From NCBI RefSeq assembly GCF_964213995.1, contig NW_027590419.1, forward strand, positions 310,001-361,937: a stretch of DNA of 51,937 bases, written 5' to 3'. Origin of the DNA: Mustelus asterias (taxonomy: Eukaryota). Shown piece after piece: positions 2,831 through 36,690 of this stretch (positions are counted from its first letter, which is position 1; every line of letters begins with the position of its first letter). The notes below the pieces were generated by a model. The model did not search any database. It had not been told where the DNA came from and was given only the letters and a program-made list of their open reading frames with translations. The translations under genes and the position numbers were made by a program.

Positions 2831-3024
2831 GTGTGTGTGGACAACGCTTCAACAGATCGTGAAACTAGCAGAGTCACAAGGACACCCGCACCATGGAGAA
2901 ACGGTGGAAATGTGGGGACTGTGAGAAGGGATTCAATTGTCCATCAAAGCTGGAAACTCATCGATGCAGAAACACTGGGGAGAGGCCATTCACCTGCTCT
3001 CTTTGTGGGAAGGGATTTAGCCAG
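2831..3024 (+). pseudogene. C2H2 zinc-finger gene fragment
   Basis: [44 protein letters not shown] with TGERPF linker. Stops upstream; truncated by CR1 sequence. Confidence 0.8.
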
Positions 3025-3377: not shown

Positions 3378-4040
3378 CCTGGGCTTTGCCCCCCCCCTCC
3401 TGGGCTTTGCCCCCCCCCTCCTGGGCTTTGCCCCCCCCCCTCCTGGGCTTTCCCCCCCCCCCTCCTGGGCTTTGCCCCCCCCTTCTGGGCTTTGCCCCCC
3501 CCCTCCTGGGCTTTGCCCCCCCCCTCCTGGGCTTTGCCCCCCCCCTCCTGGGCTTTGCCCCCCCCTCCTGGGCTTTGCCCCCCCCTCCTGGGCTTTGCCC
3601 CCCCCACCCCTGGGCATTGCCCCCCCCACCCCTGGGCATTGCCCCCCCGCTTGCCCCCCCCCCCCGCTTGCCCCCCCCCCGCTTGCNNNNNNNNNNNNNN
3701 NNNNNNNNNNNNNNNNNNNNNNNNNNNNNNNNNNNNNNNNNNNNNNNNNNNNNNNNNNNNNNNNNNNNNNNNNNNNNNNNNNNNNNNNNNNNNNNNNNNN
3801 NNNNNNNNNNNNNNNNNNNNNNNNNNNNNNNNNNNNNNNNNNNNNNNNNNNNNNNNNNNNNNNNNNNNNNNNNNNNNNNNNNNNNNNNNNNNNNNNNNNN
3901 NNNNNNNNNNNNNNNNNNCCCGACTGCCCCCCCCCCCGACTGCCCCCCCCCCGACTGCCCCCCCCCCGACTGCCCCCCCCCGACTGCCCCCCCCCGACTG
4001 CCCCCCCCCCGACTGCCCGCCCCCCGACTGCCCGCCCCCC
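3378..4040. repeat. C-rich minisatellites flanking an N gap
   Basis: (CCTGGGCTTTGCn)n and (CGACTGCn)n arrays. Confidence 0.85.
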
Positions 4041-7000: not shown

Positions 7001-9777
7001 GGGGAGCAGAGATAGATAGAGCGAGAGAGAGATGGAGAGGAGGCTGCTGTGATTGAGATAAAATGATCCACAGAGAGGGAGAGAGAGATGTGCAGAGAGG
7101 CTGAGATACAAAGTGAGATGTCGAGATAAATAGAAAGTGGGGCTTTGGCAAGACAGTGACAAAGTTTCAGAGAGAGAGTGAAAGATAGAGAGAATGAGAG
7201 AAAAGGGAGAAAGATGCTGCCATTTTGAGAGGCTGAGGTATAAAGGATGGGGAGAGACAGGGATTGGAAAGATGTGGAGAAACAGTTCTGAGGATGGGGG
7301 AGTTGCACAGACAGAGCTTCAGGGAGAGGGATTGAAATCTGGGATTACATTGGAGCAGGGATCACTGGGAATACCCCCTCCCCCTGACACACAGACCACT
7401 AACCCTCCGTGTAAAAGCCCCACCAGTCTATCTGTGAATAAAAATGAACGACCAAGACACGGGGACTTTTATTAATATTTTTCTCTCTGGTTATAGCTCT
7501 TGTCCGAGGATTCCTCACGGCAAAACTATTCGCTCTCTGCATCGCCAAAGTTTCCAAAGGAATTCTCCTTGGAAGAGAGAAAGAGAAAATAAAGTGAAAT
7601 TTGATTAAACACAAAACAAAAGCTGATTTAAAAACAATAAAAGGCACAGCAAGATCCCAGGACTTGCTGAAATTCACAATCTCACTGGGGGAGGTGGGGG
7701 AAACATTCATTTTCACCTCCTCATTATTAAACCCTGACAAAATGGGAACACGTTTCAAATGCAATGAACTTCCAACTGCCTCCTGACTGTCCCGATATTG
7801 AATTTATTAAACACATCAAAGCATTCTGGGGGCTTTACTCCAGAGACAGGCCAGTGAAAAAACACAGGAGGCCCCAATGAAGTTCCCACTTCTATCAGTC
7901 ACCTCTCTCCCCTCACTCTGTTTCTCCCTCTCCGTCTCTTACACACTTCCCCCCAGATCTCTATCTGTCCAATACCCCGTCTCTGCTCCTGTCTCTGGAT
8001 AACCTGTCCTGATCTCTGCTCTGTTTCTCTATCTCGAGGCGAATCTGGATTGAAATGCTCTCTCTAAGTTTCTGTCTGACCGTTTAAAATAAAACTCACA
8101 ATCAAAAGGGAAATGAGAAGGGGGCGGGAGCTGGAAAATCCACAATCCCACCCTGAAGCGGCTGCTTCACATTTTATTGAACCATTGAATTCAGCCACTT
8201 AAACCCTGTTGGGGAATTAAGCGAATGCAAAAGTGCTGCTGAGATTTAGGCTGTGAAGTGAGGCCTAGTCACAGAGGCTGCATTATTCCTCCGGTAGAAA
8301 GAACAAACCCCCCTCTCTCCCACCCCCCAGTTAAACAGAACAATCTTCTCCATCCACACCCACAAATCCCAGCGCCCTGTCTAAAAACACAAGCAGGACT
8401 CTGGGATTGAGAACAAGCCTTTCCCCCCAGGCTCAGGAATTTGAATTTCAGCTCCCTCTCCCTCCCGAGTGCTTCACAGTGAGAGAGAGAGAGAGACTGG
8501 GAATGCTGCAATCAGGATCCCACAGGGAGTCCCACACTGCAGGAGGACACCCCCCACCCCCAGAGACTCTGTCTCTATCCCCCTACCCCCCCTCCCCTGA
8601 GCCCCCCCACACTCCCCACCCATTCTCTATTCCTCTCTCTCTACCCCACCCTCCTTCCTCTCCATCTTTTCATGTTTAAAGTGTGGGGCGCTGTCACAGT
8701 GCAGGGAATATGGGGCGGGGAGGAGGGCACAGCAAGATCCCACACACACAGTCTGAGCAGGGCCAGATACAAAGTGATTTTTAAGTGAGGATTGGGCTAA
8801 AGTGAGTGGGCAATGAGGGAACCACACTTCTCCCTCTCTCTCCCTTGCTCCCCCCCTCCATCTCTTCCCCCACCCCAAATAAAAATAATGACAAGTCACT
8901 CCAGGATTGGGGCTGTTTGTACATTCAATATGAACAGGGAACCTTCCACTTCGAGCACAGTCACACCTCTCCCATTCCCTCTGTCTCTCGCTGTTTCTTT
9001 CTCTCTGCCTGTTTCTCTGCCTCTATCTCTGAACCTGTCCAGCCCCCTCTGTGTCTCTTTTGCTTTCCCCCCAGATCTATATATATCCAAACCCCATCTC
9101 TGCCCCGGTCTCTCCTACTCTGGATAATCTGTCCTGATCTCTGCTCTGTTTCTCCGTCTGGGGATGAATGGGGATTAAAATGCTCTCTCTGATAAGTTTC
9201 TGTCTGACCATTTCAAATAATGACGTGTTGTGGGCCACGCTTGCTATTTCTCAGTGATTTCCGTGGGGAAATGGGGAGGGAAGCTCCTCCTGCAAAGCCA
9301 GATCTCTCTCTCACTGCAATGTGGCAGCAGCCAGATTCCAATATCTTTATATTGGGAAAAAATCTTTTCAAACACAACAGCACAGATTCAGCCTCAGTCA
9401 CACAGCCGCTGGTTACAAATCCCACCTTCTGGGAGGGTGTGAGTGAGGGTCTTTTCCCCAGAGACTGGGGAGCTGGGCTGTGAGTGCAGAGCAGAGGACC
9501 CCCCCCGAACCCACCCCGCCCCTCCAGTGTGTCTCCTCTCCCTGCCCCTCTGCCTTTGATCTCCCTCTGTTACCCTCCCTTTCTCTCTCCCTCCCTGATA
9601 ACTCACAATCAAAGGAGAAAGATGGGAGAGAGAGATGCAGCAGGAAAACCCACAATCACATCCCCAATCCGATGGATTTAAGCGGCTGCTGCAGGTTTTA
9701 TTCGGCTGCCTTTCTCTCTCTCTCTCTCTGTCTTTCTCTCCTTCCCCCCCTCCCTGTCTCTCTCTTTCTCTCTCTCT
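3919..9777. repeat. Direct segmental duplication, copy 1 (partner ~31260-36690)
   Basis: Near-identical C-rich, GA-rich and unique segments, with the same short ORFs in both copies (e.g. 7194..7475 = 34049..34330). Copy 2 lacks ~4771-5722. Confidence 0.9.
4200..4505. repeat. 25-bp minisatellite (ACAGACCCAAACCCCACCCCCACCG)n
   Basis: Directly visible tandem array. Confidence 0.9.
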
Positions 9778-12042: not shown

Positions 12043-12522
12043 GGTCTCATTGCACAGTAAGTCACGACTCTGTCAGCTTCAAACCTTTCTTGGACAAGAG
12101 AAAAGTGCTTTGTTTCAGGCTGAGATTCCCGCTGAAGTGTTCAAAGCCGAGAGCCTTATCGGTAAACCCATAACTACTGTTTCTGAGCAGATACTGAGGA
12201 GCTCGGTGTGGATACTGGCGATTCCAGAACAGGTAATTTTGTTGTGCAGCTGTACTCGATACAGAGTAACAGCAGGGAATTCGTGAATGGTCACCCTCTG
12301 CTGCTTGGATTACCGGTACTGACTGGGACACTGAGTCACCATTAGTCATCTCTGAAAATAACAACGGACACAAAGCGGGTTAGGTGGAATAACAACAACG
12401 GAATAAAATCGCCTAGAGATGGAAATGGGCAATGAATATGGTGATTGATGGATTTCAGAGGTTTAGAATGACCGACCTGTGATCAGGACAAGAACCAGAG
12501 TCAGATAGAGTTTCACCCCCAT
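12043..12522 (-). pseudogene. TCR V pseudogene: leader 12522-12477, V exon from 12351
   Basis: Leader MGVKLYLTLVLVLIT; DSVSQ..C..YLFWNRQYP. A frameshift in FR3 puts YCAMRP out of frame (TGA at 12062-12064). No recognisable RSS. Confidence 0.85.
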
Positions 12523-16271: not shown

Positions 16272-16341
16272 ATGCATATAGCACCAAAAGGTCTGCTGTT
16301 TGCCATTTACTATCCCGTCCTTGCAGCTATCGGGATTCCAG
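16272..16341 (+). pseudogene. Orphan exon 1 of a GPR139/GPR142-like class A GPCR
   Basis: MHIAPKGLLFAIYYPVLAAIGIP + G|GTAAGG. Same IYYPxLAAxG motif and phase-1 donor as exon 1 at 27715-27619. No exon 2 found downstream. Confidence 0.7.
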
Positions 16342-16829
16342 GTAAGGTCTGTTAGTTCGCTTTATCTCATTAATGACCCTCTCGTAATGTAATGCAGGCT
16401 AATAATAGGAATATTCTTTTTACGGTATAAGTGATACATTTGCTCATTGACCTATATGAATTCTAATGATTTACTGATGTAACTTCCACTCTTTTAGAGT
16501 TTCATGTTTCACTTTTTGGCATTACTTCCCGAATTTTTTCCTCCCTCCAACAGTGTCTTCCATTTATCTCTACACTCTCACATGTAAAGTGCACTCTTGG
16601 TGTTATTGGAAATACTGCCGTGGGAGTATTATTTTTAGGTTGTGGGTTGCAAAAATTGTCCATTTGGCATTACTGGTGTTGATGAATTCTCACTTGGATA
16701 TCACTGCATCCGTACAAATGGCTGGCGCTATGTTTGTGGGTGAATTCCGACATTTGCATCACTGTTAAATTATTGATCTTGTTTATCGCTGACATTGACA
16801 GTGACGAAGTAAATTGCATAACTGGTTCA

Positions 16830-17200
16830 AGGTTTGAGGGATTAGTAATAGAGGTTTATAAAATGATGAAGGGGATAGATAGAGTGAACGTTCAAAGACT
16901 ATTTCCTCGGGTGGATGGAGCTATTACAAGGGGGCATAACTATAGGGTTCATGGTGGAGATACAGGAAGGATGTCCGAGGAGGTTCTTTATTCAGAGAGT
17001 GGTTGGGGTGTGGAATGGACTGCCTGCAGTGATAGTGGAGTCAGACACTTGAGGAACATTTAAGCGGTTATTGGATAGGCACATGGAGCACACCAGGATG
17101 ATAGGGAGTGGGATAGCTTGATCTTGGTTTCAGATAAAGCTCGGCACAACATCGTGGGCCGAAGGGCCTGTACTGTGCTGCACTGTTCTATGTTCTATAC
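16830..17200 (+). mobile_element. CR1 LINE 3' fragment
   Basis: IEVYKMMKGIDRV..LFP..TRGH; tail GGGCCGAAGGGCCTGT..(GTTCTAT)n. Confidence 0.85.
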
Positions 17201-17485
17201 ACCCTGAATCCACTCAACATCAAAATCTGAGCGTGTAATTAAAAAGCATTTGCCGACAAGACGGCGCCAAATTCAAACCCCAGCGTCACAACTTAAACCT
17301 GTGTGGATGGTAGGCTCGTGAGGTCACGATGGACTCCTCCCCCCCGCTCCCCAACCCCCACCGCCCTCTCTCTCTCTCTCTCACACACACACACTCACTG
17401 CAATCAGCTGAACCAAGCCCGGGTTCTCTCCTTCTCAGTCTCTGACTCATTCCATTCCCATTCACTGAGGGGGATTCACTCAGAC

Positions 17486-17974
17486 ATGTTTCTGCTCATA
17501 CTGGCGGCGCTCTTGCACAGTAAGTACTGGAAAACGTTCACCAAGCCAGATAAACATATTGATGGCAACTTAATTAACCATCTGAAATATCCCTGTAATG
17601 CGTAGAATAGGTTCCTCAAACTATCGCAGATACAAGCACATTTACATTAACTCTTGACATTTAATTCCTCTATCTTCACAGGTGGACTGTGCGCAGATCC
17701 AGTAACTCAGTCACCGGTGACAAAAACCGCATCAGAAGGGGGTTCGGTGCAGTTGGATTGTAACTATACAGACAAGGGTATGTACAGCATGCAATGGTAT
17801 CAGCAGAAACCCGCACAACCACCGACATGGATTATTTCTAAAATATTAGCAACGAAGGATGATGAAGTTTCAGGACGATACCTGGCGGCTGCTGACAGGT
17901 CGAAGCAGAATGGTTACCTCAATATCAGCGCCCTCAGTGTGGAGGACAGGGCGGTCTATTACTGTGCAGTGAGG
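17486..17974 (+). CDS. TCR alpha/delta-type V segment (V-C): leader 17486-17519, V exon 17682-17974
   Basis: MFLLILAALLH|SGLCADPVTQSP..LDCNY..MQWYQQ..GRY..EDRAVYYCAVR, then RSS. Confidence 0.9.
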
Positions 17975-18013
17975 CACAGCGTTAGATTCCAGCTAAACCC
18001 CCGTACAAAAACC
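17975..18013 (+). other. 23-RSS of V-C
   Basis: CACAGCG, 23 bp, ACAAAAACC. Confidence 0.93.
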
Positions 18014-18434
18014 TCAGCGAGTATTTACAGCTCCACTAAGTTTCCTTCTGCGCGAATGCGGTCCGGTGTATTTACCGGGTATTTTGTCCTGATTGAGATC
18101 GGCAGTGGAGCGGTTTGGGAAAACTCGATGCTAATCCCAATGCCGCGATTTATGTAGTAAACAGAAACAATGAGTATCTCGCTACCAGCTCAAGGATGCA
18201 CTTAGAAGTGGAGTTAATATGGCAGAAAATTTGCAGGCTGTTCTTTCTGAATTGTTAGCTCCAATAAGCCCAAGGACATCTGTCACAAAATGCAGAACAG
18301 ACAAAAATCTACTGTCGTATTTAACAAATGAGATGTCGAATAGCCGCCACAGAGACTCACCCAGCAACACGACTATTATTACAACTCTGGGACACAGAAA
18401 CTCACCCAACAGCACGAAGATAGTCGAGTGTATT

Positions 18435-18810
18435 GTGTGGTGGTGAGCTGCCTTCCTGAAGCTCTGCGGTCCCTGAGGTGCAGGTACACCCACTGTGCTG
18501 TTAGTGAGGGAGTTCCAGGGTTTGACCCAGTGACGGTGAAGGAACAGCGATATATTTCCAAGAAAGGATGTGGAATAACTTGGAAGGGAATCTCTAGGTG
18601 GTGATGTTCCCATGTGCCCGCTGCCCTTGTCCTCCTAAATGGCAGTGGTCGTGTTTTTGGATTGTGCTGCCTGAAAAAAGTTTAGTGAGTTGCTGCAGTG
18701 CTTCAGTAGGTGTTGCACACGGCTGCCACTGTTCGTCGGTGGTGGCAGGAATGGATGTTTACGGAATGGTGAACAATCAAGCGGACTGCTTTGTCCTGTA
18801 TCATGCAATG
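18435..18810 (-). mobile_element. Probable LINE 3' region fragment
   Basis: Minus strand reads FTVTGSNPGTPSLTA / PWNSLTNSTVGVP, resembling LINE ORF2 C-termini. Family not certain. Confidence 0.55.
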
Positions 18811-19448
18811 GTTCAAAGAGATGCAAAAGGGCATCGTGGACAGGCCTCCATACACAAAGTGTGTTTATAATCTGTCCATCACTACCACAAGGGAAGCTAA
18901 ACAAAGAGATGATGCAGAAAGAAATGGATGGAAATTCTGAGAGATTGAGACGAAGTCAGGCGAATACGCTCTCGAGGATGTAAAACAGACAGATCAATTT
19001 TGTAGAAAGTTTATTTTTCTAAGGTCTGTACTCCAACTTTTTGTATGTGATACTAACCACTAATTGTCACATTTCAGTTCAGTTGATTATTTGCAGTTTT
19101 TTAACCGTGTGTTCCAGATCAGAGCGATGGAGATTCTGTTACTCAGCGGGAATCCTCACTCACACCGCCAGAGGGAAAATAGACAAGGATCCTTCGAATA
19201 TTGATTCACCGAATAGCACGATGATTTCAATCTGGAAGCACCGTGGAACACGTACTCCCCGGATGACATTTCCACGGAAAATAATCGAATTTAAATATAT
19301 TTTGTCCTTTCTCTTTTGATATTAAACAGTAAACCCAAATCAGGGACAGGTCTCGCTGATCGGGTGACTGTGGTGCGTATCCAAGGGAGAGAGTGATTAA
19401 AGTCCCAGCTCTCTACACAGGCTGTACACGTTCCGGGTGATCGCGGCA

Positions 19449-19487
19449 GGTTTTTGTACGGCCCTGTATGGTCTTTGCTAGACTGTG
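19449..19487 (-). other. 23-RSS of V-D
   Basis: CACAGTC, 23 bp, ACAAAAACC. Confidence 0.92.
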
Positions 19488-19990
19488 CCTCCATCGCACA
19501 GAAATAGGTGGCGGTGTCTGTCAGCCGAGCTTCACTAACATTCAGAACGCTGTGTTTCTCTGAGAAAGTATACCGAGCCGTGATCCTGCCCTGATCGCTG
19601 GTACCGCTCACCAGGTGCTGCACGGTTCTGTCTAGATTTTGTCTGTACCATTGAAGGATCTTTCCAGTTACTGTAGCTGAACAGTTCAACGATGCAGTGG
19701 CTCCCTCGGTAACAACCACTGACTCCGGAGACTGTGATAGCTCTTCACTGCCAGCGGCATCTGGGAAGAATATGTACATTTGCAGTAATAACATATCGTA
19801 CTATAATGTAGCACAATAAAGTACCATTGTATTCACAATTCGAGATAATACAATAAAGCTGAGTACAATTTAACAGAACATAACATTGCTGAGGTGTGAA
19901 ATATTGCTGTCAGAAATAGTGACCACACTTACACTGAGGGAACAGTAAGAAATCCAGGAAAATAATCACCAAAGTGAAGCTCAGGAACAT
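19488..19990 (-). CDS. TCR alpha/delta-type V segment (V-D): leader 19990-19933, V exon 19760-19488
   Basis: MFLSFTLVIIFLDFLLFPQ|YAAGSEELSQSP..LNCSA..LQWYRQ..GRI..TDTATYFCAME, then RSS. Confidence 0.9.
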
Positions 19991-20189
19991 GTTGGATCCT
20001 ATCGGCTTGTGTGAAACAGCTGTCAGCAGATCCCAGGCTGAGAGAAGCTCCTGGGAAAGCAATGCTATTGGATATCAAACCGAGCCCCAAACCAGTCACA
20101 GAGTGTCGGTGAGAGCCGGGTCGCTGGGACTTGTGATCACAAAGTGAATCAGTGAGGGAGCTTCAGCATTGATAGTGCGGGGGAGGAGA

Positions 20190-20300
20190 GTGCGCATGCG
20201 GCAGAGCATCCGGTATTGTGACGTCAGAACATCCGGCATTCTGACGTCAGAACATCCGGCATTCTGACGTCAGAACATCCGGCATTCTGACGTCAGAGCA
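20190..20300. promoter_or_regulatory. 23-bp CRE minisatellite (4 x TGACGTCA) plus NRF1-like TGCGCATGCG
   Basis: TGACGTCA at 20219, 20242, 20265 and 20288. Confidence 0.65.
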
Positions 20301-20317
20301 TCCGCAACATTGGAACC

Positions 20318-20645
20318 TCATAGAATCATAGAATGCCGACAGTGCAGAAAGAGACCATTCGGCCCGTTGAACCCGCACCGACCACAGCCCCACCCAGACC
20401 CTCTCCCCGTAACCTCACATCTTTACCCCGCGAATCCCCCTGACACGAGGGGGCAATTCAACATGGCCAGTCAACCTAACCCGCACATCTTTGGACTGTG
20501 GGAGGAAACCGGAGCACCCGGAGGAAACCCACGCAGACACGGGGAGAACATCCAAACTCCAGACAGACAGTGACCCGAGGCTGGAATCGAACCGGGGGCG
20601 CTGTGAGGCAGCTGTGCTAACCACTGTGGCACCGTGACGCCCAAC
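20318..20645 (-). mobile_element. HE1-like SINE (paralog of 2060-2390)
   Basis: Reverse complement of the SINE in the left arm. Confidence 0.85.
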
Positions 20646-21905
20646 GTCAGACGTCAGAACATCGTGTATTGTGACGTCGGAATGCGGATATGTGTGGCGT
20701 CAGAATGTGTGACGTCACCCTGTAGCCCATGTGACGTCACTGTGAACTGCGAGTGACGCCAGTGGGTCTGGATTGTGGGTCAGAGACATCTCTCCTGGAG
20801 CTGATCTGAATATTCAGCCCTGAGTTGATGGGAATTAACAGCTGATCTGAAACATCTCTCCCGGAGCTGATGTGAATATCCAGCTCTGAGGTTGCGGAAT
20901 TAAGATCTAATCAGAAGCAGGGAGGTCCTGCCTTCATGTGGGCCAGTGGTACAAGCAACACCGGGATCCACAGCCAAGGTTTATGAGAAAAAGCTCTGTT
21001 TTGAAACAAATATAAGGAAGGTTTTGCTAATACAGGTCTCCCAGTAGAATCTATCTACCAGTTAAGCTTCCTTTTCTGCTTCCCATGAATTGTTTATTCC
21101 TTTAAAACCAAGGTTTGATGTTCAGGTCAACTCCGGGAAAGTGTTTCCGCCGGCAGAACTTTGGAAAACACAAACGTCTACTTTAGGAGGGGAGAGTGCA
21201 ATGGAAAGATTAGATTAATTGATTACTCTCCGATTTGTTAAACTTGGAAGGTGGTCATCGGATCCCTACAGTGCAAAAGGAGGCCATTCGGCCCATCAAG
21301 TCTGCACCGACTATTATCTAGGCCCTATCCCTGCGGTGTTGAAAGAGATGGCGGAAGAAGAGATAATAGTAAGTTTCAGAAGGGATTGAGAGATAAATTG
21401 AAAGCAGAAAAGTGCAGTCACTGTGAGAGATGCGGGGTTTGAAAGCTGAATTGACGAATTCTGTAATTCTGAATTCTCACATCAATTCTGCATTCTGTCA
21501 GGCAAAGATACCATGGGCCGAGTGGCCTCATCTCCTGCATTGATACGCTATGTTTCTATTTTGTTCATGTCCCTGGCCCCGTTATGCCCCTCCCTCTCTA
21601 TTTCTTCTCAGTCACTTGGACAGTGAGCAGGTGCAGAATGGTGACAGATTCCGGAGATGGAAGTCTCGCTATTTCCGTTCCGGGTGCAGCTGAATCTGCC
21701 GCACACTTCACTCAATATTTTGTCTACTGCATCCCCGCCCACGACTTCCGTTTTCTGCTCTCACTCTGAACCTGTTGTGTGATTGGACGGATTGCTGCCG
21801 CTGCTCCATTCCTCTCATTGGTTGGATCAGCAGTGCAGTGGAACAGTGTCTTTCTGTCTCTGACAGGATTTCTCTCATTGCAGAGTTACAGACTCAGGAA
21901 GCATC

Positions 21906-22403
21906 ATGGTGAACTATCTCACTCCCATCCTCATCATTATCTCACTTCTCAGTAAGTATTTTCTTCCCAGTAAAACTACAAGCTCCTCCTGACTGCTGTA
22001 ACCCAGATATTCCTGTTGATAAAACAATAGTGATGATGATAATTGTATCGTTTAATCTGAGGCTAACTCTGATTGTCATATTGCTGTTGTTTCTGTTAGA
22101 ACGGAGCCACCAAGACGAAGTGGAACAATTGGATCCTGGAATAAAGGTTAAAGAGGAAAATGATGTCACACTAACCTGCGCTTTGAAAACAAGCGATTCC
22201 AACCCTTATGTGTACTGGTACAGTCAGCAGCCCGGGAAAGCTCCAGTGTACATGTTTCAGCTTATTGGAGAGATTGTGCAAAGGAACACCGACCTCAATG
22301 ATCGGTTTTCTTCCAAATTTGATAAAAAGAACAAGACTAGCGAGCTGACGATCAGTAACACACTGATTTCCGACAGCGCCGGGTACTTCTGTGCCATGGA
22401 GCC
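21906..22403 (+). CDS. TCR alpha/delta-type V segment (V-A2): leader 21906-21951, V exon 22100-22403
   Basis: Near-identical paralog of V-A1 (QRNT vs QKNP; CAME vs CAMK). Confidence 0.9.
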
Positions 22404-22443
22404 CACACTGCTGCAGAGATATAGCGATTGCCGTACAAAAACC
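22404..22443 (+). other. RSS of V-A2 (24 bp spacer)
   Basis: CACACTG 22404-22410; ACAAAAACC 22435-22443. Confidence 0.9.
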
Positions 22444-23309
22444 CCACACTGGCAGTTCCAGTTAGTGCCCAGCAGGGTGCGCGCGCACACACGCGGGTAA
22501 TTCAGTTTCCACAGAGAGAGTGACAGAGATTCTTAACATTGCAACAAAAGACAACACTCAAAAACAGCAACTGGTGTGGTCCAGTTGCAGTTACATTAGT
22601 TAATGGTCGGAGCTTACATTTGCAATATCGATCTGAGATACTTCAACACATTTTTTTTCGTTTTCGATGCCTTTCTCTGCCTATTTGTTCCAGACTGTCC
22701 ATGTCTGCTGATTTATGGAAATTGTGCACATTTCCTTTCCCAGTCTTTAACATAAACATTAAAGCTTTTTCTGTTCCCTTGTACATTAATTCAGGACCTC
22801 TCCAATCTGGCTGCTCAGCTATTGGGTCCCATTTTCAATCCACATCACTGATGAGGATTTCGCTTTGTACTGAATCACTTACTAACCCGATACTCCTGGT
22901 GCAAGAATGCTGGTCCGCAGTGTGGAATGGACATTCAGCTGCCTCTCATATAGAGAGGCAAAGTTACAGAATTTCCAATTTGACATTGTTATTGAGTTCA
23001 GCTCCTTGCAGATAAATCCTAGCTGTCACCACACTGCCTATGGTAGCCCCACCCACAGTTTTCCTGTGCTGTTCGCACTCTGACCCGTCTCTCCTGTGCT
23101 GTTTTCTTGGATATTTCATTGGAGATATTGATCTTTGCTGCTTTTCCCTGTTTGGCACTGATTGGATCAGCAGTCCAATGGGGAGACAAGCTATATTTCC
23201 ATTCTGAAAGAGGATTTGACAGACTGCAAAATTACAAATTGAGAGAACATCATATGGAAATATCTCAGACCATTCATTGTTCTGTCACTTCTTATGAGGT
23301 AGATGTTTT

Positions 23310-24125
23310 GACTAAGAGATGGAATGCATCCCAGGGTACTGAAAGAAGTGGCAGAAGTAATAGAGGATGCGTTGGTTGTAATTTATCAAATTTATCAAAA
23401 TACACTGGACTCTGGGGAAGTGCCGGCTGATTGGAAAACAGCTAATGTGACACCACTGTTGAAAAAAGGAGGTAGACAAAAGGCGGGTAACTACAGCCCG
23501 GGTTAGCTTAACGTCCGTAGTTGGGAAATTGCTGGAATTCATCATTAAAGAATAGCAGGACACCTGGAAAAAAATGGTTTGATCAAGCAGACGCAGCATG
23601 GATTCATGAAGGGAAAGTCGTGTTTGACGAATTTGCTGGATTTTTATGAAGATGTAACGAGTGCGGTTGACAGAGGGGAACCAGTGGATGTGGTGTTTTT
23701 GGATTTCAGAAGGCGTTCGATAAGGTGCCTCACAAAAGGTTGCTGCAGAAAATTAGGGTGCACGGAGTTGGGGGTAAAGTGTTAGCGTGGATTGAGAATT
23801 GGCTATCCAACAGCAAGCAGAGAGTTGGAATAAATGGGTGCTTTTCTGGTTGGCAGTTGGTGACTAGTGGCGTGCCGCAGGGATTGGTGCTGGGGCCTCA
23901 ACTATTTACCATATGCATAGACGATCTGGAGGAGGGGACCGAGTGTTGGGTAACAAAGTTTGCGGATGACACAAAGATGAGTGGGAAAGTGAATTGCGTG
24001 GAGGATGCGGTAAGTCTGCAGAGAGATTTGGATAGGCTAAGTGAGTGGGTGAGGATCTGGCAGATGGAGTATAGCGTTGGTAAGTGTGAGGTTATCCACT
24101 TTGGAAGGAATAATAGTAAAATGGA
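23310..24125 (+). mobile_element. CR1 LINE RT fragment (frameshifted)
   Basis: MHPRVLKEVA..DWKTANVTPL; QHGFMKGKSCLTNL; SGVPQGLVLGPQLF; KFADDTK. Confidence 0.92.
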
Positions 24126-24324
24126 AGCTGCAATGCTGCCCCCTGTTGTTCACTTCTCCCAGTCTCAGCATTGCAGAGTGTTTAAACAAGAATGGCACAT
24201 TCAGCACCATGGAATGAGAACATTCGGACTAACTGTTCGTTATACAATTGTTCTGTTTGTATTAACAGTTCACAATCCAGGTCACAGATCTGATTCAGTG
24301 AGAGGAGGTGAGAGTGCCTTTGTA

Positions 24325-24363
24325 GGTTTTTGTACGGGCTCACTGCGCCTCTGTAGCAGTGTG
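24325..24363 (-). other. 23-RSS of V-B2
   Basis: CACACTG, 23 bp, ACAAAAACC. Confidence 0.93.
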
Positions 24364-24801
24364 GGGCTCAGCGCACAGTGATACACGGCACAGTCAGAGA
24401 CATGGACCCCGGTGATTGTTAAAGGAACTGTTCTCTTGTCCTTGTCCAATTCAGCCGAAAACCGGTCAGGGAAATCTGGAGACTTTTCTCCGCCACCCGT
24501 GCCATATTTCTGCAGTAAATATCTCGGAGCTTCCCCGGGATACTGGATGTACCAGAAGAGATTTGGAAAAGCATCCTTTGTTGTGTAATTACAATTCACT
24601 GTTACGTTCAATCCTTCCTGAACCGTTAATTCAGCCGGGTCCTGGGAAACTGAATCTTGGCCATTGATTCCTGCAACAAAATGTAGAATGTGTGAGAAAT
24701 CTGTGAACAAATATAACCCATGAAACACACACTGAGGATTTGAACTCAGACTCACCGGGCAGCGTGGCCATTATTATCAGTAAAGCACACAGGGAACACA
24801 T
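24364..24801 (-). CDS. TCR alpha/delta-type V segment (V-B2): leader 24801-24756, V exon 24670-24364
   Basis: MCSLCALLIIMATLP|GINGQDSVSQ..VNCNY..LFWY..DCAVYHCALS, then RSS. Confidence 0.9.
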
Positions 24802-24969
24802 GGTTCCTGATAGGACAGTAAGCAGCGACAATGTTTACAATAAGTTGCTGCCTCTAGTCTTATATCACAGAGTGAACTCAGATCAGAGGCAGCTTCTATT
24901 ATTCGGAAACTGGGAGGCGTTTCTCAGTGCTGCGATTGGCTCATCTCCCTGAGCTGACGTCAGCTGCGA

Positions 24970-25295
24970 ATCATAAAATCCCTACAGTGCAGAAGGAGGC
25001 CATTCGCCCCATCGAGTCTGTACCGGTCACAATCCCACCCAGGCCCCACTCCCGCAACTCCGTGTATTTACCCTGCGTATCCCCTGAGACTCGGGTCAAT
25101 TTAGCATGGCCAATCAACCCAACCTGCACATCTTTGGACTGTGGGAGGAATCAGCAGCAGCCGAAGGGGACCCACGTAGACACGGGGAGAACATGCAAAC
25201 TTCATACAGAAAGTGATCCGAAGCCGGAATTGAACCCGGGTCCCTGACACTGTGAGACAGCAGCGCTAACCATTGTGGCATCATGCCGCCCCGTA
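24970..25295 (-). mobile_element. HE1-like SINE inserted just upstream of the V-B2 CRE
   Basis: Typical HE1 body and tail on the minus strand. Confidence 0.8.
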
Positions 25296-25540
25296 ACCAG
25301 TGAAGCAATCACTGTTAGTTAATGATTTAATATTGCTGGCACTTTCCAATCACATTCCTTCCCTGGCCGTAAACGTATTTCTAAGTTCCTTGTTCTGTCT
25401 CTGCTCTCTCCCACATAACCAGTTATTCTGTCTCATTAACTGGTGAACTCGCTTTCCTCAGAACTCAGTCCATCAATCTTTCTGAAGGCAGATCCTTTTT
25501 TTCTAATTCAGGTGAAAAGTGAAACTAATTTAATCATTTA

Positions 25541-25830
25541 TGGGCGACACGGTGGCGCAGTGGTTAGCATTGCTGCCTCACAGCCCCAGGGACACGGGTT
25601 CGATTCCAGCCTCGGGTCACTGTCTCTGTGGAGTTTGCACTTTCTCCCCGTGTCTGCGTGGGTTTCCTCAGGTGCTCCAGTTTCCTTCCACAGTCCTAAA
25701 CTGTGCAGGTTTGCTGGATTGGCCACGCAAGATTGCCTTTAGTGTCAGGGGATAGCAGGTTAAATATGTGGGTTACGGGGATAGGGCCTGGGTGGGATTG
25801 TTGTCGGGACAGGCTCGTTGAGCCTAATGG
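25541..25830 (+). mobile_element. HE1-like SINE
   Basis: GGGCGACACGGTGGCGCAGTGGTTAGCATTGCTGCCTCACAG..GGTTCGATTCC. Confidence 0.85.
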
Positions 25831-25919
25831 CCATGACTCAACATAATTAATAGTTAGTGCTGTAAGTGTACCGGGGATAAGTAGTCACTCAACTCTGCAC
25901 CAGGAAATATTTCACGGAC

Positions 25920-26390
25920 TCATAACATAGAAACGAGAAGCAGGAGCCTTCTCCGCCATTAATCGTAATCATAGCTGATCATGGAGTTCAATATCCTGAT
26001 CCCCCTTCCCCCTCGCCCATATCCCTCGACCCCTTTAGCCCCAAGAGCTATATCAAATTTCTTCTTGAAATCAGACAACGTTTTGGCCTCAACTACATTC
26101 GGTGGTCCTGAATTCCATGCATCCAACACTCTCTGGATGAAGGAATTTCCCTTCACCTCAGTTTATCCCTTATCTTCAAAAGATGACGCCTAGTTCTGGA
26201 TTCCACCATTGGGAACAGTCTTCTGAATCTACCCTGTCGAACCCTGTTAGAATTTTATAAGTTTCTATGAGATCCCCTCTCACTCTTCGAAACCCCAGTG
26301 AATATAATCCTAACGGATTTAATCTCTCCTCATATGACAGAGCTGCCATCCCAGGAATCAGCATGGTAAATCTTCACTGTACCCCTCTAT
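25920..26390 (-). mobile_element. CR1 LINE 3' fragment
   Basis: LSYEERLNPLGLYSLGFRRVRGDLIETYKIL. Confidence 0.85.
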
Positions 26391-26490
26391 TCCCCAAATA
26401 GTAAAGCTCTGATTTCAAGCAGTTATTATTTCTGCTCCACGGACTTGAAAATGGGACAATTCTGAGGCTGCATTTGACAATAGATCACTT

Positions 26491-27715
26491 TTAAAATGTG
26501 TTGCCGGGCAGATAGGCACCGAATCCAGAACAGAAATAGGGAGCATTGGAAAGCCAATAGCTATTCTCACACATAAAGTACCAGAAAGTGTTTTTTACAG
26601 TGAATAGCACCATCACTGTTCCTAGAACCACAGTTGCCGTTTCCTCAGTGCAGTATTTTATTTTCAGCTTCTGACAAGTAATGGCCACGAATCGATCAAA
26701 GGTAAAAGTGACAGTGAACCAGACAGAACAGTCAGTGACTGCGTAAAGCAGGACGGCATGGATATTGCACACTTTAACATGATACATGAAGACAAATTGA
26801 TCTCTGAAACTGATGGGAATTTGCCTCAATACGAGGTCGATGATGACGACGAGTAGATCCGCCGCTGACATGGAAATTAGGTAACGTGAGACACATTTGG
26901 AAAGTCCACACCTCCCTCGAGACAGGATAAGAATCGTCAATAAGTTCACTGCAGGGAAGAGAGAGACAATTAACTCATATTTCAGACTGAGAACAGGAGC
27001 AGTAATCTGGCAGGTTTCTGGGGAACAGCTGCAGGATTTTGTTTTACAGAATCCAGCCTCAGAAAAACATGGATGCCCCTGTTCTGCTGAGACTGGGTTC
27101 ACAGTAAGAAAGCATCGCACTGAGGTATCAAGAAACTAAATTTACCAACAGAGCAGATCTCCAATTCCCTGCCTTCTCTTTATTTGTATTTGGGAGACAC
27201 AATGGTACCAATGGGTTTGGACGGAATGTTCCTGGTCTGGGTCACTCTGCTGTGGCTGTGCTGCAGACTGTGCATCTGAAGATATTGCATCAGTTGATTT
27301 GGAATTGGCTGTAAATCACAAAACTGGAAATTATATATTTTATTTTACTGAGGCAGGACCCTGTAGATATTAAGGCAGGAATAGTGGAAGTGGCCGGTGA
27401 AGGTGTGGTGGGAGTGAGGAGAGGGGGTTGGTAGTGGGGAAGGGGAAGAGTGGGAAATAGAGAGCAACCACCAGGCAAGAGTAGGGAAAATGTCTGCTGG
27501 GAAGATAGAGAAATTTTCCAATTGCATTAGCACATATGCAACATGAAGTTTGCACATTATAAAATTATTAATTGGGTCTCATGGACAAGTTCAATCAACA
27601 GAGTGAAATTTAACTCACCAGCTACACCAACTGCAGCGAGGAGTGGGTAGTAAATCCTTTGGATATCGTGAAGTACCCAAGCAACACGAAGCTCAAGTGG
27701 AATAATCCAGAACAT
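26491..27715 (-). pseudogene. Truncated GPR139/GPR142-like class A GPCR: exon 1 27715-27619, exon 2 26948-26491
   Basis: Spliced product reads MFW..IYYPLLAAVGVA|VNLLTILILSRGRCGLSKCVSRYLISMSAADLL..DCSVWFTVTFTFDRFVAI..KYC..NAPYFC, then stop. TM1-TM4 only; TM5-7 absent. Confidence 0.85.
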
Positions 27716-30434: not shown

Positions 30435-30870
30435 ATGTGTTCCCTGTGTGCTTTACTGATAATAATGGTCATGCTGCCCGGTGAGTCTGAGCTCAAATCC
30501 TCAGTGTGTGTTTCATGGGTTATATTCACTCAGATTTCTCACACATTCTATATGTTGTTACAGGAACCAGTGGCCAAGATTCAGTTTCCCAGGACCTGCC
30601 CGAATTCACGGTCCAGGAAGGGCAGACGGTAATATTGAACTGCAACTACACAACAAAATACACTGGCGAGACTCTCTTCTGGTACATTCAACATCCCGGG
30701 GACGCTAGGAGATATTTACTGAAGAAATACGGCAAGGGACAGGGGGAAAAGTCTCCAGATTTCCCTGACCGGTTTTCGGCTGAATTGGACAAAGACAAGA
30801 GAACAGTTCCTTTAACAATCACCGGGGTCCATGTCTCTGACTCTGCCGTGTATCACTGTGCGCTGAGCCC
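30435..30870 (+). CDS. TCR alpha/delta-type V segment (V-B3): leader 30435-30480, V exon 30564-30870
   Basis: MCSLCALLIIMVMLP|GTSGQDSVSQ..LNCNY..LFWY..DSAVYHCALS, then RSS. Confidence 0.9.
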
Positions 30871-30909
30871 CACACTGCTACAGAGACACAGTCAGCCCGT
30901 ACAAAAACC
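30871..30909 (+). other. 23-RSS of V-B3
   Basis: CACACTG, 23 bp, ACAAAAACC. Confidence 0.93.
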
Positions 30910-31259: not shown

Positions 31260-34200
31260 CCGACTGCCCCCCCCCCGACTGCCCCCCCCCCCGACTGCCC
31301 CCCCCCCGACTGCCCGCCCCCCCCCCCGACTGCCCGCCCCCCCCCCGACTGCCCGCCCCCCCCCCAACTGCCCGCCCCCCCCCCGACTGCCCGCCNNNNN
31401 NNNNNNNNNNNNNNNNNNNNNNNNNNNNNNNNNNNNNNNNNNNNNNNNNNNNNNNNNNNNNNNNNNNNNNNNNNNNNNNNNNNNNNNNNNNNNNNNNNNN
31501 NNNNNNNNNNNNNNNNNNNNNNNNNNNNNNNNNNNNNCCCCCCCCCGCTTGTTCCCCCCCCCCCCGAGCTGTCCCCCCCTCTCAGACCCGCCCTGACCAA
31601 TTCCTCTGAGACCCTCCAGTCCCACCAGGATTTCACCCCCCCTCCCCCCAAATCCCAGCCCTATCCATAGGGGCCCCTCCCCAGCTCCTGAACTCCTGTC
31701 CCCAAACCCCACCCCCACCGACAGACCCAAACCCCACCCCCACCGACAGACCCAAACCCCACCCCCACCGACAGACCCAAACCCCACCCCCACCGACAGA
31801 CCCAAACCCCACCCCCACCGACAGACCCAAACCCCACCCCCACCGACAGACCCAAACCCCACCCCCACCGACAGACCCAGCCCCCACCGACAGACCCGAA
31901 CCCCACACCCACCCCCACCGACAGACCCAAACCCCACCCCCACCGACAGACCCAAACCCCACCCCCACCGACAGACCCAAACCCCACCCCCACCGACAGA
32001 CCCAAACCCCACCCCCACCGACAGACCCAAACCCCACCCCCACCGACAGACCCAGCCCCCACCGACAGACCCGAACCCCACACCCACCCCCACCGACAGA
32101 CCCGAACCCCACCCCCACCGACAGACCCGAACCCCACCCCCACCGACAGACCCGAACCCCACCCCCACCGACAGACCCGAACCCCACACCCACCGACAGA
32201 CCCAACCCCCACTGAGCCTAATCCCCCCCGACTCCTGAACCCACTCCCAATCCTAAACCTGCCGCACTCAATCTCTCACCCCCAAATTCCCCTCTCCCCT
32301 CCAGGTTCCCCACCCCCCAAAACCCCCTTTAAATCCCCACTGCCCAAACCCACTCTCAGTCCCTCCACTTAAACCCCTCTGAACCTCCCCTCTGCCCAAT
32401 CTCTCTCTGCCCCTCCTCCCGATCCTCTCTGCCCCTCCCCCTGATCCTCTCTGCCCAATCTTCTCCAATCCCAATTCCCCCCCCCCCCCCCCCCCCCACT
32501 CCAGCCAAATCTGTTGTCCCTCCTCACAATCCCTCTAAATCTCCCGATCCTTCCCTCTGAGCCCCGTACCCCGCTCCCCCACTGCCCAAACCATCTTCAA
32601 AGCCCCCCGGCTGAATATCCCTCTAAGTTCCCCTCTTTCCCCCCACCCCTCTCAACCTGGCAAATTCCCACTCCCTCCCTGTGAACAGCCTCTGGACTGA
32701 CAGATCCCCCCCCTTCTAATTAGTAACCCCCCCCCCCCCCCCCCCACCACACATCTATCCCCGTCCACCACCCCCCTGTAAACAGCTCCTGGTGGAGTTG
32801 GATGTGGAAACTCTGCCCATTTTAAACATTAACGTTCAAACGACTAATTCCCCTGACACTGAGCAGCCTGTGTTATAACATCCCGCACCCCCATCCTGTA
32901 CAACAGACCCCCTGTCTGATTCCCCCCCCCCCCCCTCAATTGCCCCCTTTCTCTGATAACCCCTGACTCTGGTCAGCCTGTGTTATAATATTCCCCCCTC
33001 TTGTACAACAGCCTCCCCCACCAGCCCCTTCCCTCTCTGTCTAATAGCCCCTGGCTCTGAACAAGCCCCTGTATTACACACTCCCCCCTTTCAGCAGTGC
33101 TGAATCCCTCTGAATTGCCCCCGATTCCCTCCCTCTGCGTTCCTGGGCCTTTGCTGCTTGTGAACAGCAAACCCGTGATCTGGCCCGTCCCCCACGAGAG
33201 AGCAGAGAGGGAGATAAGAGGCAGAGAAGCAGAGAGATATAGAGATGGAGTTAGAGAGAATGCTACTGTAATTCAGACAGAATGATTCACAGAGAGAGGG
33301 AAGCAGAGATCAGATCCAGAGAGAGATAAGAGGCAGAGAGATATAGAGATGGAGTTAGAGAGAATGCTACTGTAATTCAGACAGAATGATTCACAGAGAG
33401 AGGGAAGCAGAGATCAGATACAGAGAGAGATAAGAGGCAGAGAGATATAGAGATGGAGATAGGATGCGACTGTAATTCAGACATTGATTCACAGAGAAGG
33501 GAGGGAGCAGAGATAAGAGACAGAGATATAGAGATGGAGTTAGTGAGGAATCTGCTGTGATTCAGACAATGATTCACAGAGAGAGGGAAGCAGAGAACAG
33601 ATAGAGATATAGAGACAGAGGATGCTACTTTAATTCAAACAGACTGAGTCAGGGGGAGGCAGAGATAGAGAGAGGGGGAAGCAGAGAGAGATAGAGAGAG
33701 TCAAGCAGATAGCTAGAGAGATAAGACAGAGAAGCAGAGTTAAAGTTCAAATTTTATTCGTCACAAGTAGGCTTACATTAACACTGCAATGAAGTTACTG
33801 TGAAAAGATGGAGATAGAGAGAATGCTGCTGTACTTCAGACAGAATGAGTCAGAGAGGGAGCAGAGATAGATAGAGCGAGAGAGAGATGGAGAGGAGGCT
33901 GCTGTGATTGAGATAAAATGATCCACAGAGAGGGAGAGAGAGATGTGCAGAGAGGCTGAGATACAAAGTGAGATGTCGAGATAAATAGAAAGTGGGGCTT
34001 TGGCAAGACAGTGACAAAGTTTCAGAGAGAGAGTGAAAGATAGAGAGAATGAGAGAAAAGGGAGAAAGATGCTGCCATTTTGAGAGGCTGAGGTATAAAG
34101 GATGGGGAGAGACAGGGATTGGAAAGATGTGGAGAAACAGTTCTGAGGATGGGGGAGTTGCACAGACAGAGCTTCAGGGAGAGGGATTGAAATCTGGGAT

Positions 34201-36690
34201 TACATTGGAGCAGGGATCACTGGGAATACCCCCTCCCCCTGACACACAGACCACTAACCCTCCGTGTAAAAGCCCCACCAGTCTATCTGTGAATAAAAAT
34301 GAACGACCAAGACACGGGGACTTTTATTAATATTTTTCTCTCTGGTTATAGCTCTTGTCCGAGGATTCCTCACGGCAAAACTATTCGCTCTCTGCATCGC
34401 CAAAGTTTCCAAAGGAATTCTCCTTGGAAGAGAGAAAGAGAAAATAAAGTGAAATTTGATTAAACACAAAACAAAAGCTGATTATAAACAATAAAAGGCA
34501 CAGCAAGATCCCAGGACTTGCTGAAATTCACAATCTCACTGGGGGAGGTGGGGGAAACATTCATTTTCACCTCCTCATTATTAAACCCTGACAAAATGGG
34601 AACACGTTTCAAATGCAATGAACTTCCAACTGCCTCCTGACTGTCCCGATATTGAATTTATTAAACACATCAAAGCATTCTGGGGGCTTTACTCCAGAGA
34701 CAGGCCAGTGAAAAAACACAGGAGGCCCCAATGAAGTTCCCACTTCTATCAGTCACCTCTCTCCCCTCACTCTGTTTCTCCCTCTCCGTCTCTTACACAC
34801 TTCCCCCCAGATCTCTATCTGTCCAATACCCCGTCTCTGCTCCTGTCTCTGGATAACCTGTCCTGATCTCTGCTCTGTTTCTCTATCTCGAGGCGAATCT
34901 GGATTGAAATGCTCTCTCTAAGTTTCTGTCTGACCGTTTAAAATAAAACTCACAATCAAAAGGGAAATGAGAAGGGGGCGGGAGCAGGAAAATCCACAAT
35001 CCCACCCTGAAGCGGCTGCTTCACATTTTATTGAACCATTGAATTCAGCCACTTAAACCCTGTTGGGGAATTAAGCGAATGCAAAAGTGCTGCTGAGATT
35101 TAGGCCGTGAAGTGAGGCCTAGTCACAGAGGCTGCATTATTCCTCCGGTAGAAAGAACAAACCCCCCTCTCTCCCACCCCCCAGTTAAACAGAACAATCT
35201 TCTCCATCCACACCCACAAATCCCAGCGCCCTGTCTAAAAACACAAGCAGGACTCTGGGATTGAGAACAAGCCTTTCCCCCAGGCTCAGGAATTTGAATT
35301 TCAGCTCCCTCTCCCTCCCGAGTGCTTCACAGTGAGAGAGAGAGAGAGAGACTGGGAATGCTGCAATCAGGATCCCACAGGGAGTCCCACACTGCAGGAG
35401 GACACCCCCCCCACCCCCAGAGCCTCTGTCTCTATCCCCCTACCCCCCCTCCACTGAGCCCCCCCACACTCCCCACCCATTCTCTGTTCCTCTCTCTCTA
35501 CCCCACCCTCCTTCCTCTCCATCTTTTCATGTTTAAAGTGTGGGGCGCTGTCACAGTGCAGGGAATATGGGGCGGGGAGGAGGGCACAGCAAGATCCCAC
35601 ACACAGTCTGAGCAGGGCTAGATACAAAGTGATTTTTAAGTGAGGATTGGGCTAAAGTGAGTGGGCAATGAGGGAACCACACTTCTCCCTCTCTCTCCCT
35701 CGCTCCCCCCCTCCATCTCTTCCCCCACCCCAAATAAAAATAATGACAAGTCACTCCAGGATTGGGGCTGTTTGTACATTCAATATGAACAGGGAACCTT
35801 CCACTTCGAGCACAGTCACACCTCTCTCTCCCATTCCCTCTGTCTCTCGCTGTTTCTTTCTCTCTGCCTGTTTCTCTGCCTCTATCTCTGAACCTGTCCA
35901 GCCCCCTCTGTGTCTCTTTTGCTTTCCCCCCAGATCTATATATATCCAAACCCCATCTCTGCCCCGGTCTCTCCTACTCTGGATAATCTGTCCTGATCTC
36001 TGCTCTGTTTCCCCGTCTGGGGATGAATGGGGATTAAAATGCTCTCTCTGATAAGTTTCTGTCTGACCGTTTCAAATAATGACGTGTTGTGGGCCACGTT
36101 TGCTATTTCTCAGTGATTTCCATGGGGAAATGGGGAGGGAAGCTCCTCCTGCAAAGCCAGATCTCTCTCTCACTGCAATGTGGCAGCAGCCAGATTCCAA
36201 TATCTTTATATTGGGAAAAAATCTTTTCAAACACAACAGCACAGATTCAGCCTCAGTCACACAGCCGCTGGTTACAAATCCCACCTTCTGGGAGGGTGTG
36301 AGTGAGGGTCTTTTCCCCAGAGACTGGGGAGCTGGGCTGTGAGTGCAGAGCAGAGGACCCCCCCCCGAACCCACCCCGCCCCTCCAGTGTGTCTCCTCTC
36401 CCTGCCCCTCTGCCTTTGATCTCCCTCTGTTACCCTCCCTTTCTCTCTCCCTCCCTGATAACTCACAATCAAAGGAGAAAGATGGGAGAGAGAGATACAG
36501 CAGGAAAACCCACAATCACATCCCCAATCCGATGGATTTAAGCGGCTGCTGCAGGTTTTATTCGGCTGCCTTTCTCTCTCTCTCTCTCTGTCTTTCTCTC
36601 CTCCCCCCCCCTCCCTGTCTTTCTCTGTCTCTGTCTGTCTTTCCCTCCCTCCCTGTCTCTCTCTTTCTCTCTCTCTGTCTTTCCCTCCCT
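31260..36690. repeat. Direct segmental duplication, copy 2, including an expanded 25-bp minisatellite (31702-32210)
   Basis: Near-identical to 3919-9777. Confidence 0.9.

Follow-up and report, generated by a model that had tools for sequence, protein, structure and literature searches.

The window, by which we mean the whole 51,937-nt stretch of Mustelus asterias DNA analysed here, contains two first exons of GPR139-like G-protein coupled receptor (GPCR) genes among TCR V genes. The first-pass annotation had recognised both (16272-16341 on the + strand and 27715-27619 on the - strand) as GPCR first exons, each with its partner exon absent or truncated after TM4 and each upstream of a same-strand V exon with a phase-1 acceptor (V-C at 17682, V-B2 at 24670), and all of this holds, the translations and phase-1 GT donors having been verified. 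Exon 1 of gene A (exon 1A, 70 nt) encodes the N-terminus and the first half of TM1 and ends at a donor at 16342; no exon 2 of gene A was found within the window. The 5' part of the gene-A intron follows (16342-16845, +), cut at a junction near 16846 (by sequence comparison, homology to the parent locus, L017, stops at 16850), where it is joined to the 5' end of a 3' fragment of a young interspersed repeat (16846-17198, +), which we take to be a CR1-type LINE. Copies of this repeat with 95-97% identity occur elsewhere at unrelated sites, and five of the six inspected extend further 5'. Exon 1 of gene B (exon 1B, 97 nt) is accompanied by a truncated exon 2 (26527-26948, -; Pfam 7tm_1, E 1e-7) that runs from the remainder of TM1 to just past TM4 and covers profile positions 1-141 of 299. 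This exon 2 has its own acceptor intact (AG at 26950-26949), placed between the exon 1B donor and V-B2, and ends at junction B, a 5-nt microhomology (26526-26530) joining the truncated gene to the V-B2 upstream flank.

The V genes are complete in themselves. V-C has a leader exon (MFLLILAALLH; 17486-17519, +) ending in a phase-1 GT donor, with a CRE-like TGAGGTCA 167 nt upstream of it, and an open V exon (17682-17974) followed by a 23-spacer RSS (17975-18013). V-B2 is organized likewise on the - strand, with a leader exon (MCSLCALLIIMATLP; 24801-24756) ending in a phase-1 GT donor, a CRE-like TGACGTCA 161 nt upstream of that leader, and an open exon (24670-24364) with its 23-spacer RSS (24363-24325). 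Both thus have the V-set domain, own leader, phase-1 intron and 23-spacer RSS of TCR-alpha/delta V segments. The best single-domain PDB matches of V-B2 are TCR-alpha chains, and its shark relatives in protein searches (full-length or named) came to 3 and 2 matches. A further V gene, V-B3 (leader, V exon and RSS; 30435-30909, +), is divergent from gene B, a pairing common to most intact B copies. The native leader exon of each V, and the gene B acceptor lying between the 1B donor and V-B2, are absent from the earlier reading. With phase-1 donors, shared strand and phase-1 V acceptors, the exon-1-to-V splices that it proposed would be in frame, and judged from their residues both receptor exons may be hydrophobic enough for a signal-sequence role, their best 8-residue hydropathy values being 2.3 and 2.6, where the native leaders reach 3.4 and 3.3 (a measure of hydropathy only).

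The receptors belong to a chondrichthyan multigene family annotated as 'probable GPR139' (Pfam 7tm_1; 1471 matches, the top ones all shark), with named members in Heptranchias, Heterodontus, Pristiophorus, Scyliorhinus and Mustelus (RefSeq/UniRef 'probable G-protein coupled receptor 139'). Among the best 120 of the 1471 matches, exon 2 is 47-71% identical to the shark models, and Atlas clusters of the same name matched at 0.96-0.97. Genes of the family have two coding exons, split within TM1 by a phase-1 intron. The shark models share an exon-1 motif with the window exons, and exon 1B matches the start of a Heptranchias member (P0003), but the window copies are broken, unlike the models. GPR139 itself has an aromatic amino acid ligand and is expressed in the brain. 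By sequence, the nearest solved structure is human GPR139 (PDB 7VUG, 9M42; E 4e-14 for P0003, the next receptor at 6e-6), which is the nearest characterised receptor, yet aligns only weakly. Strong conservation throughout the vertebrates is described for GPR139 (PMC12208981), unlike the shark family with its thousands of candidate loci; genome first-look searches gave 4835 and 5776 candidates, figures that do not stand for copy numbers. Between subfamilies A and B identity is only 46%. Given this divergence, the weak alignment to human GPR139 and the distance from a low-copy conserved gene, we do not class the family as GPR139. An assignment to olfactory receptors was also rejected, these being two-exon GPR139-like genes.

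GPR139-like GPCR genes are interleaved with Ig and TCR genes along a 20-Mb scaffold, so that the wider pattern is real. This scaffold (C71, 20.4 Mb) carries at least 54 GPR139-like exons, spanning 0.3-17.8 Mb in both orientations, alongside TRAV, TRAJ-TRAC and IgM-like genes. It bears IgM-like C exons as well as VH and TRAV, and a J array precedes a TRAC-like exon. This fits the elasmobranch antigen-receptor complex (AgRC), in whose description TCR-alpha/delta is linked to IgH clusters and TCR-type V exons lie between those clusters (PMC12227049). J arrays with TRAC-like exons were found on C71 and C546, and on C436 a TCR-TM exon lies 47 kb from a copy of exon 1A; none of the 21 TCR-TM matches is on the window contig, C387, of whose 362 kb 72 were examined. 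The Pfam profile PF09291 picked out a TCR-alpha constant exon in none of 17 candidates, whereas a teleost TM-exon query did detect such exons where the profile failed. The shark analogue of GPCR/TCR-V interdigitation suggested in the first-pass annotation is therefore upheld, GPR139-like genes being interleaved with TCR-alpha-type V segments across many contigs. The main text of the AgRC description names neither GPR139 nor GPCRs, and its two text supplements lack 'GPR139', 'receptor 139' and 'coupled receptor' (PMC12227049). Literature searches, with subscription journals outside their coverage, found nothing on GPCRs in a shark TCR locus or GPCR exons as V leaders and no account, by title, of a shark GPR139 expansion.

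In mammals, 2-3 olfactory receptor genes lie at the 5' edge of the V array around TRAV1-TRAV2, with conserved synteny (human OR10G2 and OR4E2; mouse Olfr1507-1509) (PMC4574546). The shark arrangement is alike in placing class A GPCR genes between TCR-alpha V segments; it differs in its two-exon family, with dozens of scattered copies in both orientations and with duplication and breakage ongoing.

Such residence might have a function. The resident subfamilies could be kept in the complex for a reason: the open locus might allow their expression in lymphocytes, or V(D)J joining might delete or invert them clone by clone. The relics would then be dead members. Contigs with close relatives of gene B bear V, C1-set or TCR-TM matches in 24 of 33 cases, whereas for less closely related genes the figure is 4 of 36 (best 150 matches per list; contigs not independent); no V matches were found in 200 kb of five other GPCR clusters (10 genes); and a Heptranchias relative of gene B is 71% identical and resembles it at the N-terminus, all of which would fit. 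Local duplication alone, however, would make close relatives neighbours, large V-free clusters of the family exist too, and the top subfamily A matches are on contigs with V, C1-set or TCR-TM matches in only 23 of 44 cases. Judged from genome sequence, we consider a functional neighbourhood unlikely.

The in-frame match of exon 1 to V carries little weight, since phase 1 is the default on both sides: it is found at the donor of 16 of 18 distinct GPCR exons 1, those of V-free clusters included, and at the acceptor of 85 of 103 distinct intact V exons (a heuristic pick). We accordingly reject phase matching as evidence of design. The 158 V matches are split nearly 50:50 between strands (75 +, 83 -), giving two co-orientations a probability near 0.25, and an in-frame co-oriented match is thus no better than chance. 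In one array (C232), 16 + and 15 - V segments, counted by hand, surround a single intact GPCR. Outside the window we have 41 exon-2-bearing GPCR genes, 16 of them with a V downstream within the 45 kb of fetched DNA; the next V is on the same strand for 6 and on the opposite strand for 10, a small and non-independent sample that reduces to about 2 same-strand and 5 opposite independent arrangements. In this sample co-oriented placement is not favoured. The proposal that exon 1 is reused as a V leader is poorly supported: the native leaders are intact, there is no bias to co-orientation, the gene B arrangement was seen in none of the 20 V-B2 copies fetched, and that of gene A goes back to one event. 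No fusion of a GPCR exon 1 to a V was present among the 153 V-containing proteins retrieved, a weak test.

Exon 1A has an intact parent on another contig (C173:695,660; a 326-aa frame), from which it differs at 1 of 70 nt, the exon 1 protein being identical. There are six orphan copies, the window and five others, all with the same breakpoint and V-C, so we reject their number as recurrence: a single event was copied six times. The six also hold V-D and repeats, and the amplified unit is thus a larger block. Each has an intact ATG and donor, and between exon 1A and V-C lies a single variant poly(A) hexamer with no competing exon 2. Together with the in-frame phases, the strong V acceptor and the hydrophobic peptide, this might suggest that V-C took over exon 1A and its promoter to serve as another first exon and signal peptide, and that the unit was retained and amplified on that account. 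Promoter and exon 1A do show 1 variable site in 502 bp vs 7.8 expected from the flanks (six copies; naive Poisson P 0.004), but the signal is weakened: the variation is clumped, and the SINE next to this stretch and a 500-bp interval past the RSS are equally quiet; exon 1A alone, with 0 variable sites seen vs 1.2 expected, is uninformative. Co-option is also countered by the intact native leader and CRE-like site of V-C, by the one origin of the arrangement, and by a copy (C591) with a stop in V-C and exon 1A unchanged. Exon 1A, the intron and the upstream sequence are each 1.4-2.7% from the parent, so the intactness of the exon needs no selection, and we reject intact ATG and donor as its sign in relics this young. 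All five older relatives of exon 1A that were fetched lack the donor and have a broken exon 2. Overall we hold co-option to be very unlikely. If exon 1A were spliced to V-C at all, this would amount to leaky read-through, and after signal cleavage the mature V domain would be unchanged.

Gene B is intact elsewhere, for instance at C232:340,187: of 14 copies, all 94-98% identical and possessing a full-length exon 2, 13 have an open 362-codon frame and one carries a stop; exon 1B is identical in 13 of these 14 close paralogues. V-B2 has 29 copies at ≥91%, and the 20 fetched have no GPCR exon in the 3-10 kb upstream; the match to the window ends exactly at 26530 in 19 of them, and another V occupies the upstream position in 15. 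Junction B thus recurs in none of the 14 gene-B and 20 V-B2 copies looked at, and the window is at the end of the 362-kb contig, in a highly repetitive region, as might be expected of an assembly chimera of two near-identical duplicated blocks, in which case relic B would not be in the animal. Contigs from four outside runs (at most three samples, one study) show both parental continuations at junction B, which would fit a chimera too. None of the contigs listed bridges it, but as these are the longest ones and drop rare variants, this is no evidence of absence. Against a chimera, junction B connects sequences that share no homology and does so cleanly, at 5 nt of microhomology, as is typical of real end-joining. 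Other private junctions are present in the region, and junction A recurs on six contigs. We judge a chimera improbable, and the verdict on leader reuse would stand either way.

Most probably, then, each exon is what remains of an intact two-exon GPR139-like gene residing among TCR V segments. Each gene would have been cut by a single rearrangement that put the relic upstream of a V already equipped with a leader, and chance is the likely reason for the in-frame co-orientation. As the V genes keep their own leader exons, the line-up is likely a by-product of recent rearrangement. Turnover may proceed by duplication of segments and their rejoining at microhomologies or repeats, through which V segments and resident GPCR genes would be copied, inverted and broken together, in a process of birth and death. 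The relics would retain ATG and donor because they are young, at 0-3% from their parents, and V-C and V-B2 are presumably transcribed from their own promoters. A bolder reading has the resident subfamilies expressed in lymphocytes and deleted or inverted clonally in V-J joining, while in the six-copy 1A/V-C unit the receptor promoter and exon 1 would have been recruited to give a TCR-alpha V gene an additional promoter and signal peptide; this seems to us highly improbable.

The relics themselves are probably ordinary debris, and the setting outweighs them: the shark Ig/TCR complex, regarded as the ancestral antigen-receptor region, also houses dozens of intact genes from a large family of orphan GPCRs. 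The published AgRC description is silent on these GPR139-like genes in its main text and two text supplements (PMC12227049). Their presence is also somewhat at odds with the small number of GPCRs ascribed to cartilaginous fishes (PMC8455134). If exon 1A did serve as a V leader, an antigen-receptor gene would have captured a receptor promoter in the recent past, with the mature chain likely unchanged. The parallel with the olfactory genes beside mammalian TRAV1 raises the question of whether GPCR/V linkage is old and functional, or recurs wherever tandem families turn over fast.

The window (C387:310001-361937) is the terminal part of a contig 362 kb long; the genome comprises 3.68 Gb in 5313 contigs. 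Within the window lie eight TCR-type V exons (three plus-strand and five minus-strand), of which seven have a 23-spacer RSS, in duplicated blocks that are 84-98% identical. Large inverted and direct duplications, 93-98% identical, pair 62-2791 with 19865-22677 and 4032-9775 with 31538-36636; one of the window's large duplications carries V-A1/V-A2, whose RSS has, by the pattern applied, a spacer of 24 or 22 nt. Also present are a frameshifted V pseudogene at 12045-12352 (-), with no recognisable RSS, and, amid the V genes, a C2H2 zinc-finger-like reading-frame fragment at 2869-3084 (+), identified by eye.

The two GPCR first exons of the window have the translations and phase-1 GT donors described in the first-pass annotation and, judged by sequence, are genuine. 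Exon 1A (16272-16341, +) corresponds to exon 1 of its parent, a gene on contig C173 that is intact and encodes 326 aa; exon 1B (27715-27619, -) aligns with the N-terminal start of a Heptranchias 'probable GPR139' protein (P0003). Their partner exons are indeed lost: exon 2 of gene A is absent from the window, and that of gene B ends at profile position 141 of 299. The homologues found by protein search are from sharks. Human GPR139, the nearest solved relative, is only weakly similar, so we call the family GPR139-like and reject its assignment to GPR139 proper. The family has thousands of candidate loci in the genome, and public data list 1471 clusters of its proteins; this size runs against the statement in PMC8455134 that cartilaginous fishes have few GPCRs.

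Interdigitation of GPCR genes with TCR V segments, as proposed earlier, is genuine and large in this genome. First-look searches returned 4835 and 5776 candidates for the GPCR exon-2 queries (150 and 130 were scored; these are not copy numbers) and 1865 for V-B2. On C71 (20.4 Mb), at least 54 distinct GPCR places, counted by hand from two lists, lie from 0.3 to 17.8 Mb, and 12 V, 19 C1-set and 4 TCR-type transmembrane exons are among the matches listed. A C1 exon that we checked there is IgM-like and follows a VH at a distance of 13 kb, and a TRAC-like exon at 18.43 Mb (18431794) is preceded by 10 J segments. On C232, 31 V segments (16 +, 15 -) surround one intact gene B. For the exon 1A parent, on C173, the upstream region contains a VH at 5 kb and an IgM-like exon at ~20 kb. 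Five other GPCR clusters, serving as a control, contained 10 GPCR genes and no V in 200 kb. C71 fits the elasmobranch antigen-receptor complex, in which TCR-type V exons lie between IgH clusters (PMC12227049); term searches of that paper's main text and two text supplements found no mention of GPCRs or GPR139, which its figures and other supplements may list. The mammalian parallel is the 2-3 olfactory genes around TRAV1 (PMC4574546). We found no account of GPCR/antigen-receptor interdigitation in a shark in the literature searched.

Some further features of the genome: (i) A cassette repeated on C71 (4.80-4.84, 6.91-6.95 and 14.63-14.69 Mb) places two convergent GPCR genes beside three or four V segments, several of which have stops or no RSS; one of its GPCRs has a 9-kb first intron (two copies with exon 1 fetched). 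(ii) Another TRAC-like exon, on C546 (241988), is preceded by 32 J segments in 60 kb; the TRAC-like transmembrane exons of C546 and C71 are similar but non-identical, each ending a separate J array, which points to a possible duplication of the TCR-alpha J-C unit. (iii) A further 19 TCR-type transmembrane exons are spread over 17 contigs, C71 having three of them. We read three of the 19, all of a second type, which we take to be probably delta or NAR-TCR, hinting at a multi-cluster TCR-delta-like gene.

Among the matches listed, V, C1 or TCR-type transmembrane matches occur on 24 of 33 contigs with close gene B relatives versus 4 of 36 with distant ones, and on 23 of 44 for subfamily A, the contigs being non-independent. 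Local duplication without function explains the enrichment of close gene B relatives; a functional GPCR neighbourhood in the antigen-receptor region seems improbable.

V-C and V-B2, the V exons downstream of exons 1A and 1B, each share the strand of their GPCR exon and have phase-1 acceptors, as annotated. This phase match is the default state for both exon types: 16 of 18 distinct GPCR exon-1 matches, V-free clusters included, have a phase-1 donor (two have none), and for V exons that are distinct and intact, the best acceptor, picked heuristically, is phase 1 in 85 of 103 (8 phase 2, 1 phase 0, 9 none). Both V exons have native leader exons that had been overlooked, at 17486-17519 (+) for V-C and 24801-24756 (-) for V-B2, with their own GT donors and introns of 162 and 85 nt. 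CRE-like sites, which are associated with TCR V promoters, lie 167 and 161 nt upstream of these leaders. V-C and V-B2 would use native V promoters, and the suggested reuse of GPCR exon 1 as a V leader appears unlikely.

Homology of relic A to its parent stops near 16846 (junction A), where the intron joins a 3' fragment of a young repeat, presumably CR1, that is 95-97% identical at unrelated sites. Exon 1A, junction A and V-C also occur on five other contigs at 97-99.6% identity; on sequence evidence, the orphan arrangement is one event, then copied. Relic A and parent differ at 7 positions in the upstream 400 nt, 1 in the exon and 4 in the first 150 intron nt, so few that decay would not be expected yet. 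Five older exon 1A relatives (81-86% identity) have lost the donor and have a broken exon 2, with no V within 10 kb. Co-option of exon 1A for V-C would find support in the promoter and exon, which have 1 variable site in 502 bp among the six copies versus 7.8 expected (naive P 0.004; the variation is clumped). A stretch past the RSS is equally quiet, exon 1A alone is uninformative, and the C591 copy has a stop codon in V-C; we regard co-option as very improbable. Because no competing exon 2 is present, a single variant poly(A) hexamer lies from donor to V-C, and the exon 1A peptide is hydrophobic, leaky 1A-to-V-C splicing would be possible if the 1A promoter fires. The V-C exon and leader intron (17520-17974) vary at 3.4 and 4.9 sites per 100 nt among the six copies and the flanks (compared: 16342-17199) at 0.2-2.5, which suggests that V has undergone gene conversion or is under diversifying selection.

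For the truncated gene B exon, we found 14 copies in the genome at 94-98% identity; the frame is open over 362 codons in 13 of them, and the remaining one contains a stop. Both exons are present in all 14 gene B copies, exon 1 being identical in 13. Between the exon 1B donor and V-B2, gene B's own acceptor is retained at 26949, along with six AATAAA/ATTAAA hexamers. We compared the upstream regions of 20 of the 29 V-B2 copies with at least 91% identity. None of the 20 has a GPCR exon within the 3-10 kb of sequence compared upstream, the match to the window ends exactly at 26530 in 19, and 15 have a different V at that place. Junction B (26526-26530) has 5-nt microhomology, and both parental continuations occur there in contigs of four outside runs (at most three samples, one study). 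Given the V-B2 copies, the microhomology and these parental forms, exon 1B with V-B2 would be a single recent joint private to this place. A chimera of the assembly is the other possibility, one that we consider improbable.

The orientation survey took in 171 stretches, 1.74 Mb in all with the window counted, a non-random sample chosen around known matches; 75 V matches were on the plus and 83 on the minus strand. Among 41 GPCR genes with exon 2 outside the window, 25 have no downstream V within 45 kb of fetched DNA; for the other 16, the next downstream V is same-strand in 6 and opposite in 10 (~2 and ~5 independent arrangements). The nearest upstream V lies on the opposite strand in 15 of 18 cases, most of which are copies of two cassettes. 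Interdigitation stands from the original interpretation; co-oriented placement as a recurring rule shows no sign in these non-random stretches of this genome. V orientation is ~50:50 in the window and in C232:292700-380250; about half of V-J joinings there would have to proceed by inversion.

The alternatives of co-option, functional neighbourhood and chimera overlap partly with the reading that we consider most likely, for which parent genes, joints, leaders and splice phases were observed directly. The antigen-receptor region of this shark would be an array with fast turnover: V segments and the GPCR genes residing among them, passively co-duplicated, would be duplicated, inverted and broken jointly.
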